64,000 nucleotides of DNA from an uncultured Chloroflexia bacterium (GTDB taxonomy: Bacteria; Chloroflexota; Limnocylindria; Limnocylindrales; CSP1-4). The DNA lies in the NCBI GenBank assembly GCA_963789725.1, contig CAWBLU010000001.1:709549-773548 (forward strand). The letters are read 5' to 3'. Of the stretch, positions 928-9,351 are shown in pieces. A program made the position numbers and the translations under genes. Below the pieces are notes generated by a model. The model ran no database searches. It saw nothing but the letters and a program-made list of their open reading frames with translations, and was not told where the DNA came from. How positions within the stretch are numbered: the stretch's first letter is position 1; each line of letters opens with the position of its first letter.

Positions 928-1748
928 CGGGTGACCTCCTTCGAGCCGGCCGCGTGGGCGGGGTCCGCGGGGTCGGCGGGGTCGGAGCCGCCCGGGGTCT
1001 GAGCGGCGAAGCTCAGGAAGGCCGTCTCCAGGTTGTCGGTGGCGGCGCGCGCTCGCAACTGTTCCGGCGTTCCCTGCGCCAGGACATGCCCGCTCCGGAT
1101 GAAGAGCAGTTCGTCGCAGCGATCAGCCTCGTCCATCACGTGACTAGAGACAACCAGCGTGGCGCCGTCGGCGGCGAGCTTGTGGAAGTGGTCCCAGAAC
1201 TGGACCCGCAGGGCCGGATCCACGCCGACCGTAGGTTCGTCGAGGAAGATGACGCTCGGGTGGTGGGCCAGCGCGCACGCCATCGAGAGTCGGCGCCGCA
1301 TCCCACCGGAGAGGTCCTGGGCGGGCGTGCCGGCCCGCTTCTCCAGCTCGACGAATTCCAGGGTCGCCTTGAGCTGGGCCTTGTCGGTCTGGCCGTAGAG
1401 CGCCGCGAAGAACGTCAGATTCTCCCAGACCGAAAGCTCGGGGTAGATGCCGTCGGCCTGGGTCATGTAGCCGATGCGCGCCAGGTTGGTGCGCGACGGC
1501 ATCGCCACGCCCATGACCTTGACGGTCCCGCTGGTCGCGGAGGCGAGTCCGGTCAGCAGCCGGATCAGGGTCGTCTTGCCCGAGCCGTTGGGCCCGAGCA
1601 GCCCGTAGATCCTTCCCGGCGGCAGGCGCATGTCGATGCCGTCGACGGCATGTATCTCCCCGAAGTCTTTGCGGAGTGCGACCGCTTCCACCGCCGGCGG
1701 TGGCGGCGTCGGCGCCATGTCGGGTGAGGGCGCGGGAGCGACGGTCAT
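924..1748 (-). CDS. ABC transporter ATP-binding protein
   Basis: Walker A GLLGPNGSGKTT, signature LSGGMRRRLSMACAL and Walker B VIFLDEPTVGVD. The start overlaps the TetR stop in an ATGA junction at 1745-1748. Confidence 0.9.
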   Translation of the reverse strand: MTVAPAPSPDMAPTPPPPAVEAVALRKDFGEIHAVDGIDMRLPPGRIYGLLGPNGSGKTTLIRLLTGLASATSGTVKVMGVAMPSRTNLARIGYMTQADGIYPELSVWENLTFFAALYGQTDKAQLKATLEFVELEKRAGTPAQDLSGGMRRRLSMACALAHHPSVIFLDEPTVGVDPALRVQFWDHFHKLAADGATLVVSSHVMDEADRCDELLFIRSGHVLAQGTPEQLRARAATDNLETAFLSFAAQTPGGSDPADPADPAHAAGSKEVTR

Positions 1749-2575
1749 CGGTTGCCTCCTTGGCTGGCTTCAGGTCGGGCGGCGCCGCGGAGAAGCAGAT
1801 CCACGTACGCCTCGACGTTGTCTATGGCGGGAGTGATGCCGATTCGGGAGAGTTCCTCGAATACGGCAGGCCCGAGGACGATGAGCAGGAAGACGGGCCC
1901 GAACAGCGCCTGGATGAGCAGTGCCGGGTCGGTCTGGCGCAGATTTCCCTTCTGGATCTGGACCCCGAACCAGGCGATCATCAGCGGCGCACCCTGGCCT
2001 ACGATCTCGGACATGACGACGCGGGCCAACTCCGGGTCCCGCGACGAGTTGGCGGCGAGGTTTCGGACGAGGTCGGCTCGGGTCCGCATGGCGTCGTAAT
2101 AGGCGCGGGCGATGGCGATCAAGCCGTCTCTGGCGCTCAGCTCAACGGACGGTTCGATCTTCCCGCGCATCTCATCCACGGGGCTGACGCGCCGGGCGAC
2201 GGCTCGCAGCAGCTCCGCGCGATCATCGAAGTGGTGGTAGAAGGCGCCCTTCGTCAGGCCCGCTTCAGCGGCGATGGCCTCGATCGAGATCTGGCCGCCC
2301 CCGGGGCGGGAGAGGAGGCGGACGGCGGCATCGATGAGGCGATCGCGGGTCGGCTCGTCTCGTGCGGTCGTGGTGTCGAGGCCATCGGCGGCCAGAGCGG
2401 CGCGGAGGCCTCGCAGCCCACCGAAGTAGTGATGAACGGTCTGGCGGGAGACGCCGGCCTCGGCAGCCACGTCCTGGACCGACAGGGCAGCGGGGTCGGC
2501 CTGGAACCGGCGGCGAGCGGCTTCCAGGATCGCGTCCCGGGTTGGCTGCGCGATTGGGCTCGACTGGTCAGACAT
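1745..2575 (-). CDS. TetR family transcriptional regulator with two tandem TetR_N-like HTH segments
   Basis: Start chosen at ATG 2575 (MSDQSSPIAQ...); the ORF-track extension to 2809 only translates the 14-bp repeat array. There are two HTH-like stretches, LSVQDVAAEAGVSRQTVHHYFGG and ISIEAIAAEAGLTKGAFYHHFDD, followed by a roughly 150 aa ligand-type domain. It is the first gene of the TetR-ABC ATPase-permease operon. Confidence 0.8.
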   Translation of the reverse strand: MSDQSSPIAQPTRDAILEAARRRFQADPAALSVQDVAAEAGVSRQTVHHYFGGLRGLRAALAADGLDTTTARDEPTRDRLIDAAVRLLSRPGGGQISIEAIAAEAGLTKGAFYHHFDDRAELLRAVARRVSPVDEMRGKIEPSVELSARDGLIAIARAYYDAMRTRADLVRNLAANSSRDPELARVVMSEIVGQGAPLMIAWFGVQIQKGNLRQTDPALLIQALFGPVFLLIVLGPAVFEELSRIGITPAIDNVEAYVDLLLRGAARPEASQGGNR

Positions 2576-2814: not shown

Positions 2815-3069
2815 CCTTCTCAATATCACCCGGGCTGCTGCTACGCCGAGTACCGGGCCGAATGCCTGCTCAATATCAGCCCGGCGAATGCTGAGGTGCG
2901 TTGGGCCGCCCGCTCGGCCACGGCCGGTGCCTGGGCCGGCGGTTCGAGCGTGAGCAGGACAGCGTCGCCGACCTTTCTGCTCCGCGAGTGTGAAACGGCG
3001 GCTTCGCGGCTGCTTTGGATCACCCAGGATGATTCTGAGCAGGTTTGAGTTGGTGTCTGCCCGCCCTGG

Positions 3070-3858
3070 CTATGGCGCGCTCACCGCCGCGTCCACCGGC
3101 CGGCGGAGCAGCCGCAGAGATGCGGTCTGGACGGCGATGACCGCCAGCAGGCCCGCGCCGAAAGCGACGCCGAGACCCAGCTGTTCGATCGTGGAGTTGA
3201 TTACGAGGAAGAACACGATCGTGCCGAAGAGGCCCATCTGAAGCCCTCGAACGACATGGATCGCCGAGCCCGGTCCTTCGAGGTGGTGGGCAAAGACCGC
3301 CAGGACTGTGACATAAACTGGCAGCGCGGCCAGCAGTCCGCTGAGCGAGGGGCCCAGCGTTTCGGCGGCGGCGGTGATCGCCAGCACGATGCCGGTGCCG
3401 ACGATCATCCGGGCGGGGATGTCCCAGGCCGGCGCGGGGGCGATGTCAATCCCCTCGGGCGCGGGAACCGCCAGCGCCAGGCAGACGATCATCACCACGG
3501 CGACCACGGCGAACACGACCACCGCCGGCTCGGCCAGCACGGGCTGCATGGCCAGTGCCGCCGCGGCAAATGCGCCCAAACCGCAGGCCACCGACACCGG
3601 CCAGCCCGCCCGGCGCGCGACCAGTCCGTACGCCAGGGCGAAGGTGGCGTCGCCGAGCAGCCCCGCGATCGAACCCTTGGCCGAACCCGCAGCGAAAGCG
3701 TTCCCCTGGCCCAGGGCAAGGTAGAGAGCGACGGGCCCGGATGTGAGCGGCAGGGCCACGATCCAGCCCCCGACCGCGGGCCCCCAGCGTCGCGCCGCCA
3801 GGCTCACCCCACCGATGAGCAGGGGCGTAAGGCTGAGTTTGAGCAAGAGAAGGGCCAC
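3070..3858 (-). CDS. Polytopic membrane protein of unknown function, paralog A
   Basis: GTG start at 3858 chosen so the N-terminus aligns in length with paralog B (VALLLLKLSLTPLLIGGVSLAARRWGPAVGG vs MIDLFFKIGLPVVMIGIVTLAGHRYGPAVGG). About 8 hydrophobic helices. The first ~100 codons of ORF 3070..4149 are Arg-rich out-of-frame junk. Confidence 0.6.
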   Translation of the reverse strand: MALLLLKLSLTPLLIGGVSLAARRWGPAVGGWIVALPLTSGPVALYLALGQGNAFAAGSAKGSIAGLLGDATFALAYGLVARRAGWPVSVACGLGAFAAAALAMQPVLAEPAVVVFAVVAVVMIVCLALAVPAPEGIDIAPAPAWDIPARMIVGTGIVLAITAAAETLGPSLSGLLAALPVYVTVLAVFAHHLEGPGSAIHVVRGLQMGLFGTIVFFLVINSTIEQLGLGVAFGAGLLAVIAVQTASLRLLRRPVDAAVSAP

Positions 3859-3925: not shown

Positions 3926-4396
3926 TCAGCGTCCGGAGAATCGCCTGATCTCGCTCGCCATCGCCGCCGAGAATGTCGGCAATGCGGCCGCCACCGGCTC
4001 CGACAGCTCCTCGCCGAACGAGAACTCCGCGCCGCCGATGCCGACGAATACGCCGTCGAGCGGTGCTCCTCGCATCTCCTCGGCGAGGGCCAGGACCTGG
4101 TCGGGGGGCAGCGAATGGGATGAGGCCGGAGTCGCCGCCGCGCGCCCAACGATCTCGGCGAGCGGCAGGACGACGACCTGCCCGGCCGCGATTCCGACCG
4201 CGGCGTCGGCGACGATCAGTGGCGCTCCCAGAGGAACCTCGAGCAGCGCGTCGACCGACAGCTGACCGATCTCCGAGATTTCTGCAAGGGCCACCGTTCC
4301 CGGATCCAGACCCTCGGCCGCCAGCAGAGCCGCCCCGTCGTCGCGGCGCAACCGCTCGCCGCAGACGAGCACCACGACCGGTTGCGTCGGGGTCAC
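3926..4396 (-). CDS. [NiFe]-hydrogenase maturation endopeptidase (HyaD/HoxW/HycI family)
   Basis: The frame within ORF 3926..5476 reads VTPTQPVVVLVCGERLRRDDGAALLAAEGL...IVADAAVGIAAGQVVVLP...SHSLPPDQVLALAEEMRGAP, matching the family pattern VLGxGNxLxxDDGxG...DAxxxGxxPG...SxHxL. The GTG at 4396 overlaps the paralog B stop (GTGA). About 156 aa. Confidence 0.7.
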   Translation of the reverse strand: MTPTQPVVVLVCGERLRRDDGAALLAAEGLDPGTVALAEISEIGQLSVDALLEVPLGAPLIVADAAVGIAAGQVVVLPLAEIVGRAAATPASSHSLPPDQVLALAEEMRGAPLDGVFVGIGGAEFSFGEELSEPVAAALPTFSAAMASEIRRFSGR

Positions 4397-5220
4397 TCGG
4401 CCGCCTCGGGCAGAGCCAATTCGTCGGCTAACTGAGCCTCGACCTCGGCCGCCGGACGGCGCGCCCGGAAGGCGGACCGCAGCTCCACGAATTGCACGAC
4501 GACCACGGCGCATCCCGCCAGGGCGAACGATCGCACGACCCCCAGCGGCTCGAGTGTCGCCGCGACGACCGTCAGAAAGGCGGCGAAGCCCAGTAATCCG
4601 TGAGTCAGGCCGCGCATCACTCCGACCGTCCGGTCCGGTCCTTCCTGCGCGTGAGTGAAGAGCGCCATGACGGCGGCAATCGTTGGGATCGTGGTCAGCA
4701 TGCCGCTCAACGTCGCCCCGAGGCGTGGGCCGGCGGTTGTCACGAAGACCACCATGGCCGCGCCGGCGATCATGCGAGTTGGCAGATCGGACCTGGCGGT
4801 GGCACGGCGCGGCATCGGCGGCGCCTTCGGCAGCAGGCGGCGCGAAACCAGCAGGACGGCCATGGTGGCGACAAACGCCGGGGCCAGTCCCCAGGCCGAG
4901 ATGGGCAGCATGGCCGCCCATGTCACGGCAAACGCCGCGTAGGCCCCGGCACCTGCCACCGACCAGCTGAAACGGCGGCACATCAGGGCATAGGCAAGGC
5001 AGAAGACGCCGCATCCTGCGGCACCGCCGAGCGACGCGGCGGCGGACTTGGCGGCGAACGACGTGTTCTGCTCCAGAGCCAGGAACAGGAGGATCGGGCC
5101 GCCCTTGGCCGGGACGGCGCTGAGAATGCCGCCGACGGCCGGGCCGTAGCGGTGGCCGGCGAGCGTGACGATGCCGATCATCACGACCGGCAGTCCGATC
5201 TTGAAGAAGAGGTCGATCAT
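4393..5220 (-). CDS. Polytopic membrane protein of unknown function, paralog B
   Basis: Start ATG at 5220 (MIDLFFKIGLPVVMIGIV...). Clearly paralogous to the 3070..3858 product, sharing GPAVGG, ALFTHAQEGP/AVFAHHLEGP and VMRGLTHGL/VVRGLQMGL blocks. The ORF-track extension to 5598 is just the translated 61-bp repeat. Confidence 0.65.
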   Translation of the reverse strand: MIDLFFKIGLPVVMIGIVTLAGHRYGPAVGGILSAVPAKGGPILLFLALEQNTSFAAKSAAASLGGAAGCGVFCLAYALMCRRFSWSVAGAGAYAAFAVTWAAMLPISAWGLAPAFVATMAVLLVSRRLLPKAPPMPRRATARSDLPTRMIAGAAMVVFVTTAGPRLGATLSGMLTTIPTIAAVMALFTHAQEGPDRTVGVMRGLTHGLLGFAAFLTVVAATLEPLGVVRSFALAGCAVVVVQFVELRSAFRARRPAAEVEAQLADELALPEAAE

Positions 5221-5229
5221 GTGCGGCCC

Positions 5230-5657
5230 CACGGTAACCGCCGGAGCGTTCGGCCGCCCAGTCGTCGGCTTCGCCTGGTCCGGAGGGCCCCACGGTAACC
5301 GCCGGAGCGTTCGGCCGCCCAGTCGTCGGCTTCGCCTGGTCCGGAGGGCCCCACGGTAACCGCCGGAGCGTTCGGCCGCCCAGTCGTCGGCTTCGCCTGG
5401 TCCGGAGGGCCCCACGGTAACCGCCGGAGCGTTCGGCCGCCCAGTCGTCGGCTTCGCCTGGTCCGGAGGGCCCCACGGTAACCGCCGGAGCGTTCGGCCG
5501 CCCAGTCGTCGGCTTCGCCTGGTCCGGAGGGCCCCACGGTAACCGCCGGAGCGTTCGGCCGCCCAGTCGTCGGCTTCGCCTGGTCCGGAGAGCCCCACGG
5601 TAACCGCCGGAGCGTTCGGCCGCCCAGTCGTCGGCTTCGCCTGGTCCGGAGAGCCCC
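5230..5657. repeat. Perfect tandem repeat, 61-bp unit x7 (cacggtaaccgccggagcgttcggccgcccagtcgtcggcttcgcctggtccggagggccc)
   Basis: Period of 61 confirmed at 5230, 5291, 5352, 5413, 5474, 5535 and 5596. The last two copies carry gagagcc in place of gagggcc. The array lies between the hydrogenase large-subunit stop (5696) and the paralog B start (5220). Since 61 is not a multiple of 3, it is non-coding. Confidence 0.9.
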
Positions 5658-5695
5658 AGGCTGGCCGGTTGGACGATATCCGGCTCCGCGATCGG

Positions 5696-7009
5696 TCAGT
5701 CGCGCTCGACTTCCAGTTTGAGGAAGTGCGTGGCGCAGCTGATGCAGGGGTCGTAGGAGCGGATCAGCTGCTCCAAGCGGATAGTCGCCTCGGCATGGGG
5801 CAGGGTCAGGACCTGAGGAGCGAACTCCGCCAGGTCCGCCTCGATCATGCCCTGGTTCTGGCCGGTGGGGGCAATGATCTGGGCGGCTTCGATCTTGCCG
5901 TTGTCGTCGAGGTCGTAGTGGTGCCAGCAGATGCCGCGCGGCGCCTCGGTGCCCCAGCCGGTGTCGCCGCCGCGCGGGGTCCAGGGCGTGAAGGGTCTGG
6001 CCGGCTCTTCGTACGAGTTGACGATGTCCAGCGCCGAAGCGGAGGCGTGGATCAGCTCAACCGATCGTGCCGCTATCGCCCAGTACGGGTTTCGCGCGAT
6101 CTGCCTGGCCAGGCCGCTCGCGTGGAGAGCCTCGGCCGCCAGGGGGTGGAGCTGGTCGGCGTTGAGAGTTACACGCGCCGACGGACCCAGCATGTATAGC
6201 TTGCCGTCGAGAGTGCGAGCGTGGAGGGCGTTCGTGCCTTCGTGGTGCTCTTCGTGGAAGGCCTCGCGCCAGCCCCACAGCGGCACGTCGATGCCGTCGG
6301 TGGAGACGATCCGGCCCTCGTTCAGGCCGTACTCGATCGGATGCTTGATGGCCACGTAGTGCGGGTCGCGCTCGAACTTGGGCGCCTTGAACGCGGCCAC
6401 GAGCTTGAGCGTCGCGTGAGAGAGCGCCAGCGCCTCCGTCAGGGGCGCCCGAAGGGCCTGGATCTGGTCCCGGCTCGGGGTCCTGGAAAACCCGCCGACG
6501 CGCATCGAGACCGGGTGGATCGCCCGGCCTCCGATGAGCTTCATGATCTCGTTGCCGGTCCGCTTGAGCCTCAGCGCCTGCTCGACGACGGGCTTGTGGT
6601 CGCGCGCCATGGCGATCGCGCTCTCGTAGCCCAGGAAGTCCGGGGCGTGGAGCATGTAGACGTGGAGGGCGTGGCTCTCGATCCATTCGCCCCAATAGAA
6701 GAGCTTGCGCAGGGCTCGAACCTGGGGGTCGATCTCGACCTCGAAAAGGTGCTCGAAGGCCATTGCGGAGCTCATCTGGTAGGCCACCGGACAGATGCCG
6801 CAAATTCGAGCCGTGATGTCGACTACTTCGTTGGGCGTCCTGCCGACGACGAGCTTCTCGAAGTAGCGCGGTGCCTCGAAGATGGAGAGGCTCGCCTCGC
6901 GGACTTCGCCGTCGGTTATGCGCAGCTTTAGCGTGCCCTCGCCCTCGACGCGCGCGATCCCGACAACCTCGAAGTTGCGCTCACCCGTCGTCGTTCCTGC
7001 CTTTGGCAT
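5696..7009 (-). CDS. [NiFe]-hydrogenase large (catalytic) subunit, group 3-like, 437 aa
   Basis: N-terminal RVEGEG...RICGICPVAY (RxCGxC), EAPRG, and C-terminal DPCISCATH followed by the cleavable tail FLKLEVERD. The size and motifs fit soluble group 3 enzymes. No small-subunit gene lies upstream. Confidence 0.85.
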   Translation of the reverse strand: MPKAGTTTGERNFEVVGIARVEGEGTLKLRITDGEVREASLSIFEAPRYFEKLVVGRTPNEVVDITARICGICPVAYQMSSAMAFEHLFEVEIDPQVRALRKLFYWGEWIESHALHVYMLHAPDFLGYESAIAMARDHKPVVEQALRLKRTGNEIMKLIGGRAIHPVSMRVGGFSRTPSRDQIQALRAPLTEALALSHATLKLVAAFKAPKFERDPHYVAIKHPIEYGLNEGRIVSTDGIDVPLWGWREAFHEEHHEGTNALHARTLDGKLYMLGPSARVTLNADQLHPLAAEALHASGLARQIARNPYWAIAARSVELIHASASALDIVNSYEEPARPFTPWTPRGGDTGWGTEAPRGICWHHYDLDDNGKIEAAQIIAPTGQNQGMIEADLAEFAPQVLTLPHAEATIRLEQLIRSYDPCISCATHFLKLEVERD

Positions 7010-7169: not shown

Positions 7170-8069
7170 TCAGCCCGCGGCCGGCCCGCAGGCTGACTCG
7201 TTGGGATAGACGGGTCGCACGGCGGCCGAATAGGCCCCGCTCGGCGCGCTCCAGACGGTCATCGGCGTCGCCGTCACGGCGACGGTCGTGAACGCTGCGA
7301 GGTCGGCACCGGAGACGGCGACGCAGGTCGTGCCGTCGACCAGCGTCGGCCGCCCGCCCGTGGCGGGATCCACAGACAGCGGCCACGTTACGGTGGGCGA
7401 GGTGGAATCGCCGGGCGATTGCGGCCCGGCCGTCATGAAGACTGCCAGGGCCGTGGGCTCGTAGGCACCGTCGTCTCCGACCGCGCGGCCCAGGAAGGTT
7501 GAGAGGTCGAGGATCTTGGTCTCGAAATCGAGCAGCTTCTCGCGAGCGGCAGCCGTGGCCGGGTCTGGGGCCGGGATGTCGAGGCCGAGTCCACCGGCGG
7601 TGATGGTGTGGACTCTGCCACCGACAATCGTGGTGAACACCGTGTCGCTGGCGTCGGGAGTTCCGACCGACCGGTAGTTCATGTCCGGCCCCAGCAGGCC
7701 GTCGGCATCCGCGGCGGCCACGATCTTCTGGATCTCCGCCACCGTGACGTGCATGACTCGGAGGTTGGGGATGAGCGGAGCCGGGTCGGCGGTGGGGAAG
7801 GGGCCCGGGACTATCAGCGTGCCGTCACCGTAGAGCGCAAGGCGGGGGGTCCTCACCAGTAGGTACCCGGGGCCTACGAATCCGCCCTCGTCCGCCAGCC
7901 GAAAGATGAGCTGGTCCGCCCCGGTTGCGACCTGGTAGCCGGGTGTGGCGGTCGACGCCGCCGATGGGGCCGCCGAGGCGGATTGGCCGGCGGACGGATC
8001 CCCGGTCGCGGCGCTCGCGCACGCCGCTACGAGAAACGAGACTGCCAGGAGCGACGGGAGCGCGCGCAT
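7170..8069 (-). CDS. Secreted lipoprotein, hypothetical
   Basis: Start ATG at 8069: MRALPSLLAVSFLVAACASA, which is a signal peptide plus lipobox LVAAC. The ORF-track N-terminal extension to 8249 is Arg-rich junk. Confidence 0.6.
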   Translation of the reverse strand: MRALPSLLAVSFLVAACASAATGDPSAGQSASAAPSAASTATPGYQVATGADQLIFRLADEGGFVGPGYLLVRTPRLALYGDGTLIVPGPFPTADPAPLIPNLRVMHVTVAEIQKIVAAADADGLLGPDMNYRSVGTPDASDTVFTTIVGGRVHTITAGGLGLDIPAPDPATAAAREKLLDFETKILDLSTFLGRAVGDDGAYEPTALAVFMTAGPQSPGDSTSPTVTWPLSVDPATGGRPTLVDGTTCVAVSGADLAAFTTVAVTATPMTVWSAPSGAYSAAVRPVYPNESACGPAAG

Positions 8070-8247
8070 CGTGTGTTGCCTCAACGTTGGTGTGCGCGCG
8101 GGATGGCGCACGTCTCCACGCCCGACGCAGCCGAGGTGACGGCGGTTCCGCGGAGTCGCCTGATGAAACGGCAGGCCGGGCGCGCGCTGCCACGGCCCCG
8201 GCGTCCCATGCGTGGAACCCGGCCGGTGACTGTGGCCGCGGCTCACC

Positions 8248-9351
8248 ATGCCCCGCTATAGTCCAGCGGTGAACCTGCCGTTCAATCCGCCGATCGAGCC
8301 GATGCTGGCCAAACTGACCGAGGCAATTCCCGCCGGCGCCGGCTGGTTGTACGAGCCCAAGTGGGACGGCTTCCGGGCCCTGGTCTTCCGCGACGGCGAC
8401 GAGACGTTCATCCAGAGTCGCGACCTGAAGCCGCTCGACCGCTACTTCCCGGAGCTGCCGCCGGCGCTTCTGGCGGCCCTTCCGTCTCGCTGCGTCCTGG
8501 ATGGCGAAGTGGTGATAGCCGGACCCAACGGCCTGGACTTCGACTCCTTGCTGCTGCGAATCCACCCCGCGGCGTCGCGGGTCAAGATGCTGGCGGCCCA
8601 GACGCCCGCCAGCTACGTGGCCTGGGATCTACTGGCCCTCGATGACCGCGATCTGCGCGCAGTGCCGCAAGGGGAGCGGCGCGCGCTCCTGGAGCAGGTC
8701 CTGGCCGACGCTCCACCACCCGTGCATCTGACCCCATCGACAGCCGATGCGTCGGTCGCGGCCGACTGGTTCCATCGGTTCGAGGGCGCCGGCCTGGACG
8801 GCGTCGTCGCCAAACGGACGTCGGACCCGTATATGCCGGCCAAGCGTGGCTGGGCCAAGATCAAGCACGCCCGCACCGCCGATTGCGTCGTGGCCGGATT
8901 TCGGTGGCACAAGAACGGACCGGGCACCCTGGTCGGCTCTCTCCTGCTGGGGTTGTACGACGATACCGGCCGATTGAACCACGTCGGCATCACCGCCAGC
9001 TTCACCACGGATAAACGCCGCCAGCTGGTCGAGGAACTTGCCCCTTTGCGTGCAGAGGCCCTCCAGGGCCATCCCTGGGCGGAATGGGCCGAATGGGAGG
9101 CCGCCGCGCGCGCGTCGGGCCAGCGCATGCCGGGAGCGACCAGCCGCTGGAACCGCGGTCGCGATCTGACGTGGGAGCCGTTGCGCGCCGAGCGAGTCTG
9201 CGAGGTCGCCTACGACCATTTGCAGGGCGACCGCTTCCGCCACGCCACTACGTTCGTGCGCTGGCGCCCGGACAAGCGCCCGTCGGATTGCCGCTACGAT
9301 CAGCTGGAGTCGACCGCCCCGTTCGAACTGGCAGCGATCTTCGGGCGGTAG
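8248..9351 (+). CDS. ATP-dependent DNA ligase (LigC-type, adenylation + OB domains)
   Basis: Motif I EPKWDGFR (KxDGxR), DGEVV, WDLLALDD, DGVVAKR and WAKIK. 367 aa. Confidence 0.85.
   Translation: MPRYSPAVNLPFNPPIEPMLAKLTEAIPAGAGWLYEPKWDGFRALVFRDGDETFIQSRDLKPLDRYFPELPPALLAALPSRCVLDGEVVIAGPNGLDFDSLLLRIHPAASRVKMLAAQTPASYVAWDLLALDDRDLRAVPQGERRALLEQVLADAPPPVHLTPSTADASVAADWFHRFEGAGLDGVVAKRTSDPYMPAKRGWAKIKHARTADCVVAGFRWHKNGPGTLVGSLLLGLYDDTGRLNHVGITASFTTDKRRQLVEELAPLRAEALQGHPWAEWAEWEAAARASGQRMPGATSRWNRGRDLTWEPLRAERVCEVAYDHLQGDRFRHATTFVRWRPDKRPSDCRYDQLESTAPFELAAIFGR

Follow-up and report, generated by a model that had tools for sequence, protein, structure and literature searches.

A 61-bp tandem array from a candidate promoter region upstream of a membrane-protein gene in an uncultured Chloroflexota

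We analyzed a 64-kb stretch of DNA (the window; all array and gene coordinates are window positions) from an uncultured, soil-type, Limnocylindrales-like member of the Chloroflexota, in which a 61-bp unit is repeated head to tail between the gene for a [NiFe]-hydrogenase large subunit and the gene for a protein designated membrane protein B. The array is a real, young, locus-specific minisatellite from a promoter-like upstream region; it is an ordinary bacterial variable-number repeat and no new kind of element. The best explanation as a whole, at a probability of roughly 0.55, is a recent in-place amplification of a 61-bp promoter-bearing region, with an effect on expression. Its parts differ in strength: comparison with related loci makes it very probable that the unit is native sequence directly upstream of membrane B, amplified where it stood; a promoter-dosage function is tentative, at somewhat less than even odds; and we infer both an effect of copy number on expression and variation of the copy number itself. 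Amplified promoter-like region is a more fitting description of the array than inert spacer in an operon.

Seven near-identical units end four nucleotides before a start codon

Tandem Repeats Finder delimited the array at 5225-5658, with a period of 61, 7.1 copies, 99% matches, 0 indels and a score of 854. A search with the 61-mer allowing <=3 mismatches recovered seven matches, six of them perfect and one with a single mismatch; beyond the array, the same search returned 0 matches in the 64 kb and 0 in 100 shuffles. The sole variable base is a G-to-A change at plus-strand positions 5591 and 5652. The junction k-mer GGTTACCGTGGGGCCCTCCGGACCAGG occurs only where at least two units adjoin. A first-pass annotation of the window had described seven head-to-tail 61-bp copies with a one-base variation ('gagggcc to gagagcc') at 5230-5657; count and variation both hold, and its coordinates denote the same array in a register offset by 5 nt. 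It had also placed the array between the large-subunit stop and the membrane B start, which is right, and every flanking gene lies on the minus strand. The features on which the argument depends are the following.

5225..5658, minus strand: 61-bp array, 7.1 copies; transcribed-strand unit CTCCGGACCAGGCGAAGCCGACGACTGGGCGGCCGAACGCTCCGGCGGTTACCGTGGGGCC (Tandem Repeats Finder, exact and near-exact matches, sequence)
5231..5236, minus strand: proximal TACCGT hexamer (TANNNT, candidate -10), 10 nt upstream of the ATG; aligns with the relatives' TAGCCT
5248..5255, minus strand: GGCCGAAC box, 11 nt upstream of the hexamer; once per unit; matches the relatives' conserved (G)GCCGAAT
5221..5230, minus strand: right boundary, TGGGGC + CGCAC; right microhomology copy, directly before the ATG
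5659..5695, minus strand: unique spacer of 37 nt from hydrogenase stop to array; holds a degenerate older motif copy, GCCGGAT-N14-CAGCCT
5696..7009, minus strand: [NiFe]-hydrogenase large subunit, group-3-like, 437 aa (Pfam PF00374; NCBIfam); upstream neighbour of the array
4393..5220, minus strand: membrane protein B, 275 aa; no Pfam family; confined to Limnocylindrales-like genomes; N-terminus conserved in relatives
3926..4396, minus strand: HycI/HyaD-type hydrogenase maturation protease (TIGR00072, 1.7e-18)

On the minus strand the order is thus hydrogenase large subunit (stop TGA at 5696-5698), array, membrane protein B and HycI-type protease. The membrane B ATG, at 5218-5220, lies 4 nt (GCAC) past the array end. 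The GTG start of the protease overlaps the membrane B stop (GTGA, 4393-4396), which places the protease in one operon with membrane B, translationally coupled to it.

With a unit in the 10-100-bp range, a head-to-tail arrangement and high identity between units, the array, whose G+C content is 73%, has the properties of a minisatellite or variable-number tandem repeat (VNTR). It is not a clustered regularly interspaced short palindromic repeat (CRISPR) array: its units abut, with no spacers between repeats.

The unit carries a conserved candidate promoter of membrane protein B

Related loci, ~50 in number, were gathered via the hydrogenase and the membrane protein. They represent related species, the closest sharing 93% identity with the window in the hydrogenase and 88% in membrane B; no exact protein match to either window protein was on record. 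The 61-bp array is absent from all ~50 loci, in agreement with its earlier description as homogeneous and young. The hydrogenase-to-membrane-gene spacer ranges from 30 to 478 nt in the relatives, and its sequence is largely unconserved. Directly 5' of the same membrane gene, ~25 relatives share the conserved motif (G)GCCGAAT-N14-TAGCCTG-N8/9-ATG, and a box followed by a TANNNT hexamer precedes the membrane gene in ~30. The motif is retained with a different upstream gene in one relative (L029), where a lipoprotein gene occupies that place and the hydrogenase is absent.

The window carries the variant GGCCGAAC-N11-TACCGT, followed by GGGG. The form GGCCGAAC-N11-TACCGT...GCAC-ATG occurs in single copy in five relatives (L027, L041 and L057; slightly more diverged in L014 and L053), and homologues of the unit are 97% identical over 34 nt in L027 and 91% identical over 45 nt in L041. 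Within the array, TACCGT recurs every 61 nt beyond the proximal hexamer, with starts at 5292, 5353, 5414, 5475, 5536 and 5597. Elsewhere in the window, searched as a regulon test, the combination of box and hexamer was found only in the array.

When TANNNT was counted relative to candidate start codons in the window and the loci of 11 relatives, a sharp peak appeared at -12 (18 counts versus a background of ~2), which indicates that leaderless mRNAs are probably frequent in these Limnocylindrales-like genomes. In high-GC bacteria, a -10 box adjoining the start codon is a signature of leaderless genes (PMC3160421). Window examples at -12 precede the starts 8269, 14296, 44080, 50804, 39853(-), 10698(-) and 3858(-); a ligase and the membrane-protein paralog A are included among them.

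In the relatives, a strong hairpin with a U-rich tract usually precedes the motif; five were folded, four with z-scores of -3.3 to -5.8 and the fifth with -1.9. On sequence grounds this order is a predicted terminator-then-promoter layout. From the -12 peak and the terminator-like hairpin before the motif in relatives, we infer that the motif is the membrane gene's own candidate promoter, with a -10-type TANNNT. The first T of the hexamer stands at -15 in the relatives and at -16 in the window, which would give a leader of ~2-4 nt; such a short leader is more likely than a strictly leaderless membrane B mRNA. The common form of the motif has no conserved Shine-Dalgarno sequence.

The conserved hairpin was found in the spacers of L013, L014, L026, L028, L041, L048, L001, L029 and L032. 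It has the form AACCGGCGG(G/A)GGC-loop-GCC(T/C)CGCCGGTT with a U-rich tail and sits after the upstream gene and before the motif; its stem sequence varies among relatives, and the window lacks it. Folding the 37-nt spacer after the window hydrogenase gave no terminator-like hairpin (z = +0.08), and because it is absent there, the array is probably also transcribed from upstream.

Several points weigh against an amplified promoter with an effect on expression. The promoter assignment draws on comparison only, and that comparison is limited to related species; the copy number of 7 is known from the window assembly alone. The hexamer lies 9-10 nt from the ATG versus 6-7 nt in the lineage's leaderless genes, so the gene may have a short leader or the motif another role. 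The spacing from box to hexamer is 11 nt in the unit versus 14 nt in the common form; should the box be a -35-type element, promoter strength may be lower in the unit. The footprint of RNA polymerase exceeds the 61-bp distance between units, and copies may therefore compete and not add. With the terminator hairpin absent after the window hydrogenase, read-through could make extra promoters unimportant. A sigma-70 consensus scan found nothing, which is expected at 70% G+C and so uninformative; sigma-70 promoter and terminator scans of window and relatives alike were uninformative at this G+C and missed hairpins that are clear by folding. An extracytoplasmic function (ECF) sigma reading of GAAC...CGT, made by eye, was dropped, its spacing being 14 nt (9 nt to GTT) versus the usual 16-17 nt.

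The array was very probably amplified in place

TGGGGC bounds the array on both sides. The left microhomology copy, at 5653-5658, stands in the context CAGCC-TGGGGC-T, and the right one in ACCG-TGGGGC-C-GCAC-ATG. The array is polymorphic at one site only, the base that follows TGGGGC, and it is precisely here that the ancestral flanks diverge (T left, C right); in the direction of transcription, the unit junctions read T, T, C, C, C, C, C. TGGGGC at both boundaries, together with the flank-matching polymorphism, fits slippage or unequal exchange followed by expansion through homology. Most likely, the first duplication would have come about through slippage or unequal exchange involving two TGGGGC repeats at a distance of 61 nt; these repeats may in turn be left over from an earlier doubling of the motif. 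Further growth of the array would have proceeded through the 61-bp homology, the expected product being a promoter tandem repeat, minisatellite or VNTR.

Traces of an older duplication occur in the window and in relatives. The degenerate hexamer in the window spacer lies at 5658-5663, its first T changed to C. In the window this older copy (CAGCCT) lies 61 nt upstream of the first TACCGT; in L041 and L027 the older copy (TAGCCT) precedes TACCGT by 61 and 59 nt, respectively. In L012, a 98-bp x 1.9 tandem repeat (L012 positions 2797-2977) at the orthologous position consists of four diverged ~49-nt copies in ABAB order; its motif is GGGCGGCCG(A/C)ACGCTCCGGCGGCTACCGT, and a TAACCT hexamer comes after the repeat, at 9 nt from the ATG. 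L012 is an independent, older amplification at the orthologous site, and its four copies indicate that this spot was amplified more than once. Taken together, the single-copy homologues, the older copy 59-61 nt upstream and the L012 copies argue that the unit is native and that the site carries an apparent old two-copy duplication, which would have been re-amplified at least twice. The expansion in the window is recent, because the units are identical, and it is lineage-specific. Six relatives with 89% hydrogenase identity (L004-L009) were considered as cases of an expanded spacer and rejected, as an unrelated lipoprotein-like gene lies there between hydrogenase and protease.

Arrival of the unit as a dispersed or mobile small repeat that was inserted and then multiplied, in the manner of a mycobacterial interspersed repetitive unit (MIRU), repetitive extragenic palindrome (REP) or miniature inverted-repeat transposable element (MITE), is very unlikely. 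In L027 and L041 the single unit does look inserted when compared with L033, being TGGG(G)-flanked between TAGCCTGGG and the ATG. Against insertion, relaxed blastn found no further unit copies in the window, and none was present in other sequence from relatives outside the orthologous site. In 185,579 GTDB species representatives, the 22-nt core of the unit gave two isolated 23-nt matches only (Mycolicibacillus and Streptomyces), which did not extend and were rejected as chance. The unit is not palindromic, and its resemblance to the neighbouring native motif (box, hexamer, GGGG) fits an old local duplication better than insertion. Dispersal, by which MIRU, REP, bacterial interspersed mosaic elements (BIME) and MITE are recognized, was thus found neither in the window nor in the relatives' loci nor in the GTDB core search, which speaks against the common dispersed repeat that the first-pass annotation had raised as an alternative.

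MIRUs, with units of 40-100 bp in tandem, occupy intergenic regions flanked by genes of like orientation in a high-GC genome. The window array resembles them in being a tandem, intergenic unit among co-oriented genes in a high-GC genome, and one array frame ends in a TGA overlapping the downstream ATG (ATGA, 5217-5220). It differs in that MIRUs are dispersed at tens of loci and the window unit occupies one locus only, in having no small open reading frame (ORF) that overlaps the hydrogenase stop codon, and in deriving from locus-specific sequence. An inverted-repeat scan of the array, which bears on REP-type palindromes, found short, imperfect palindromes only, at the unit junctions.

Neither coding capacity nor RNA structure is likely to account for the array

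The array interrupts none of the three minus-strand frames, which gives ORFs at 4393-5598, 3926-5476 and 5217-5537, each beginning at the GTG of one unit. At 73% G+C, three open frames are expected and artefactual ORFs are produced. The open frames would favour a coding array, either as a repeat-bearing extension at the N-terminus of the membrane protein or as a repeat protein in its own right, but this reading is scarcely credible. Since 61 is not a multiple of 3, the frame rotates with each unit; the translated array had 0 relatives among 5.8 billion protein clusters, and a Pfam scan of the extended ORF found no family. All 120 listed membrane-protein homologues are 258-281 aa long with MIDLFF-type N-termini, and the extension is present in none. 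The homologue lengths and the lack of relatives of the translated array bear out the earlier remark that ORFs with a 61-aa period are artefacts of the repeat. For annotation purposes, three spurious ORFs cross the array, and the true membrane B start is the ATG at 5220.

The array had also been proposed as an RNA structural element, which the folding results leave unsupported. Folding covered the unit (four registers), a dimer of two units and the entire 475-nt spacer; all were less stable than dinucleotide shuffles, with z-scores of +1.0 to +2.5, and plus-strand controls gave +0.3 and +0.9. At E <= 1, the array had no hit in Rfam. Eight homologous leaders analyzed with RNAalifold gave a weak structure (-9.9 kcal/mol; covariation term +0.19; one compensatory pair). 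A structured RNA in the intercistronic transcript, whether riboswitch-like, processing or stabilising, would be served by the probable transcription of the array past the hydrogenase, where the terminator is absent, and by that G-C to A-U compensatory pair, which falls in a short stem (GGGCG/CGCUC) surrounding the GCCGAA box. However, the covariation term adds no stabilising support, the compensatory change is common to two closely related sequences and may be a single event, and the proposed stem is not retained in the common form of the motif. With folds on the transcribed strand less stable than shuffles and Rfam empty, we regard such an element as highly improbable.

Proposed effect on expression, and neutral or artefactual alternatives

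If the unit carries the promoter of membrane B, only the proximal copy would keep the native distance from the ATG, the other six lying upstream. The upstream copies could act as extra RNA polymerase entry sites, yielding leaders of 61 x n nt; alternatively, they could be extra binding sites for a factor that recognises the box, or titrate polymerase or that factor. Expression of the operon of membrane B and the maturation protease would then be tuned by the copies, whose number should be prone to change. Copy-number variability and the recombination-hotspot behaviour proposed in the first-pass annotation are both plausible. Any such effect would extend to the protease because it is translationally coupled to membrane B.

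A neutral or mildly deleterious slippage product, amplified in place as a transient minisatellite that leaves expression unaffected, is the less likely but still serious account of the same array. The units are perfectly identical, as in a very young array untouched by selection; the array is absent from all relatives examined; the spacer is plastic, at 30 to 478 nt, with no obvious consequence; and RNA structure is unsupported. Three observations point the other way, although none of them proves function. What was amplified coincides exactly with the conserved stretch that bears the motif; another perfect array (14 bp x 14) lies in the TetR promoter region of the same cluster, ~2.4 kb away; and the same motif was amplified independently in L012.

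An assembly artefact, in which the copy number or the array itself came from collapse, expansion or loop traversal of a shorter repeat, is decidedly improbable. A perfect array of 434 bp does exceed a short read, the window is the one source of the copy number, and metagenome contigs of relatives tend to end here (L034, L045), as if assemblers struggle at the site. Against this, the array lies within a contiguous 64-kb window with intact flanking genes, and it has an ordered variant pattern (T, T, then C x5) with clean microhomology boundaries. The second long perfect array was also resolved, which suggests long-read data, and the single-unit progenitor in relatives makes a duplication biologically straightforward.

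The L034 and L045 contigs, both from short-read metagenomes, stop within a few nucleotides of the membrane gene's start codon: L034 ends exactly between GCAC and ATG, the repeat/unique boundary of the window, and L045 ends at codon 2. These ends suggest unresolved repeats or strain-level spacer heterogeneity at the site in other populations. Because short-read assemblies break at such repeats, the absence of the array in relatives is a biased observation.

Relation to known repeats in promoter regions

The first-pass annotation had called such an array unusual for a bacterial chromosome, which is overstated: 50-60-bp minisatellites directly 5' of genes are well documented, for example in Mycobacterium tuberculosis (PMC12817950). 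The promoter tandem repeats of that species have units of 57 bp at dop, 58 bp at lpdA and 54-56 bp at cysG (Modlin et al. 2025, PMC12817950), the lpdA repeat lying 12 bp upstream of a leaderless gene and the cysG repeat 29 bp upstream (PMC12817950). These repeats differ in copy number from strain to strain and also inside cultures, at 10^-2 to 10^-3 per chromosome (PMC12817950), and engineered strains with a second lpdA repeat copy formed more biofilm (cited in PMC12817950).

These repeats are the closest known counterpart of the window array. Both have units of ~55-60 bp arranged head to tail in a few to several copies, and both end a few base pairs from a start codon (12 bp at lpdA, 29 bp at cysG, 4 bp in the window, where the array stands immediately upstream of the membrane B gene start). 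In both, the downstream genes are leaderless or nearly so, the window leader being predicted, and the organism is high-GC with TANNNT -10 elements. The unit holds the gene's promoter region, in the window a candidate promoter, and copies are presumed to change by slippage or recombination. The two cases differ in that transcription starts are mapped and copy-number variation is demonstrated in M. tuberculosis, whereas the window is known from sequence; in that the window host is an uncultured Chloroflexota (Limnocylindrales-like) and not an actinobacterium; in the hexamer-to-ATG distance of 10 nt in the window, ~3 nt above typical leaderless spacing; and in the seven perfect copies of the window, which are at the high end.

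The array also resembles the contingency loci of host-adapted bacteria, in which promoter-region copy number is a potentially reversible, high-rate switch or dial of expression; for the window this is potential only. In contingency loci, units of 1-7 bp alter the -35/-10 spacing, whereas the window duplicates whole promoter-bearing 61-bp units, so that an effect on dosage or leader length, and none on spacing, would be expected. The 14-bp x 14 array of the window is nearer to contingency loci in unit size.

If the array is real and copy-variable, it would be a promoter-region VNTR outside the well-studied pathogens, in a poorly known order of uncultured Chloroflexota, and the two genes affected would encode the hydrogenase maturation protease and a membrane protein specific to the lineage. 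A bolder proposal, which we consider quite unlikely, is that the 61-bp and 14-bp arrays are both functional, rapidly mutable copy-number dials, giving heritable, reversible expression heterogeneity of a hydrogenase-maturation/membrane module in a soil or peat Chloroflexota. Were it true, promoter-repeat phase variation, so far described in pathogens, would extend to free-living environmental bacteria, and short-read metagenome assemblies would systematically hide such loci, given the contig breaks in relatives. In practical terms, such arrays break or mislead short-read assemblies and so matter for assembly quality control, and this array is a possible marker for strain typing.

A second array and the neighbouring genes

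The only long perfect arrays in the 64 kb are the 61-bp and 14-bp arrays, both in 5' regions of one gene cluster. The additional features of that cluster are as follows.

2619-2816, upstream of TetR: 14-bp array, unit CCCGACACCCGCGC, 14.1 copies, 99% matches (Tandem Repeats Finder)
1745-2575, minus strand: TetR gene, start ATG 2575
3070-3858, minus strand: membrane protein paralog A, downstream of the protease

The 14-mer is absent from all the relatives' loci. Some 20 nt downstream of the array end come a TTGACA box and a near-palindrome, CATGCATAC-TG-GTACG(T/C)ATG. L029 and L004 conserve this palindrome, which stands immediately before the start codon of TetR (ATG 2575).

The description of the surroundings as a hydrogenase cluster was generous: a hydrogenase gene is indeed present, but the complement here comprises a large subunit and a maturation protease only. 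No small-subunit gene adjoins the large subunit or the protease on either side. The best NCBIfam matches of the large subunit are sulfhydrogenase/group-3 alpha subunits, under the equivalog cut-offs, and its homologues at 84-89% identity carry the NCBI name Candidatus Limnocylindrales, phylum Chloroflexota. In L029 (1990-4739), a membrane gene and TetR pair occurs without hydrogenase and without protease, directly after a homologue of the window lipoprotein gene (7170-8249). From this pair, hydrogenase and protease look like variable additions to a core of membrane protein, TetR and ABC transporter.

The most likely start of paralog A is GTG 3858, ~290 nt downstream of the longest-ORF start (4149), with a TACCCT hexamer 7 nt upstream in a leaderless-type arrangement. 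In the spacer between paralog A and TetR, a box resembling CCGGGTGA(T/C)ATTGAG occurs in two copies ~58 nt apart, at ~2815-2885 (minus strand) in the window and at ~12466-12545 in L004, the relative with 89% hydrogenase identity that shares this paired box with the window.

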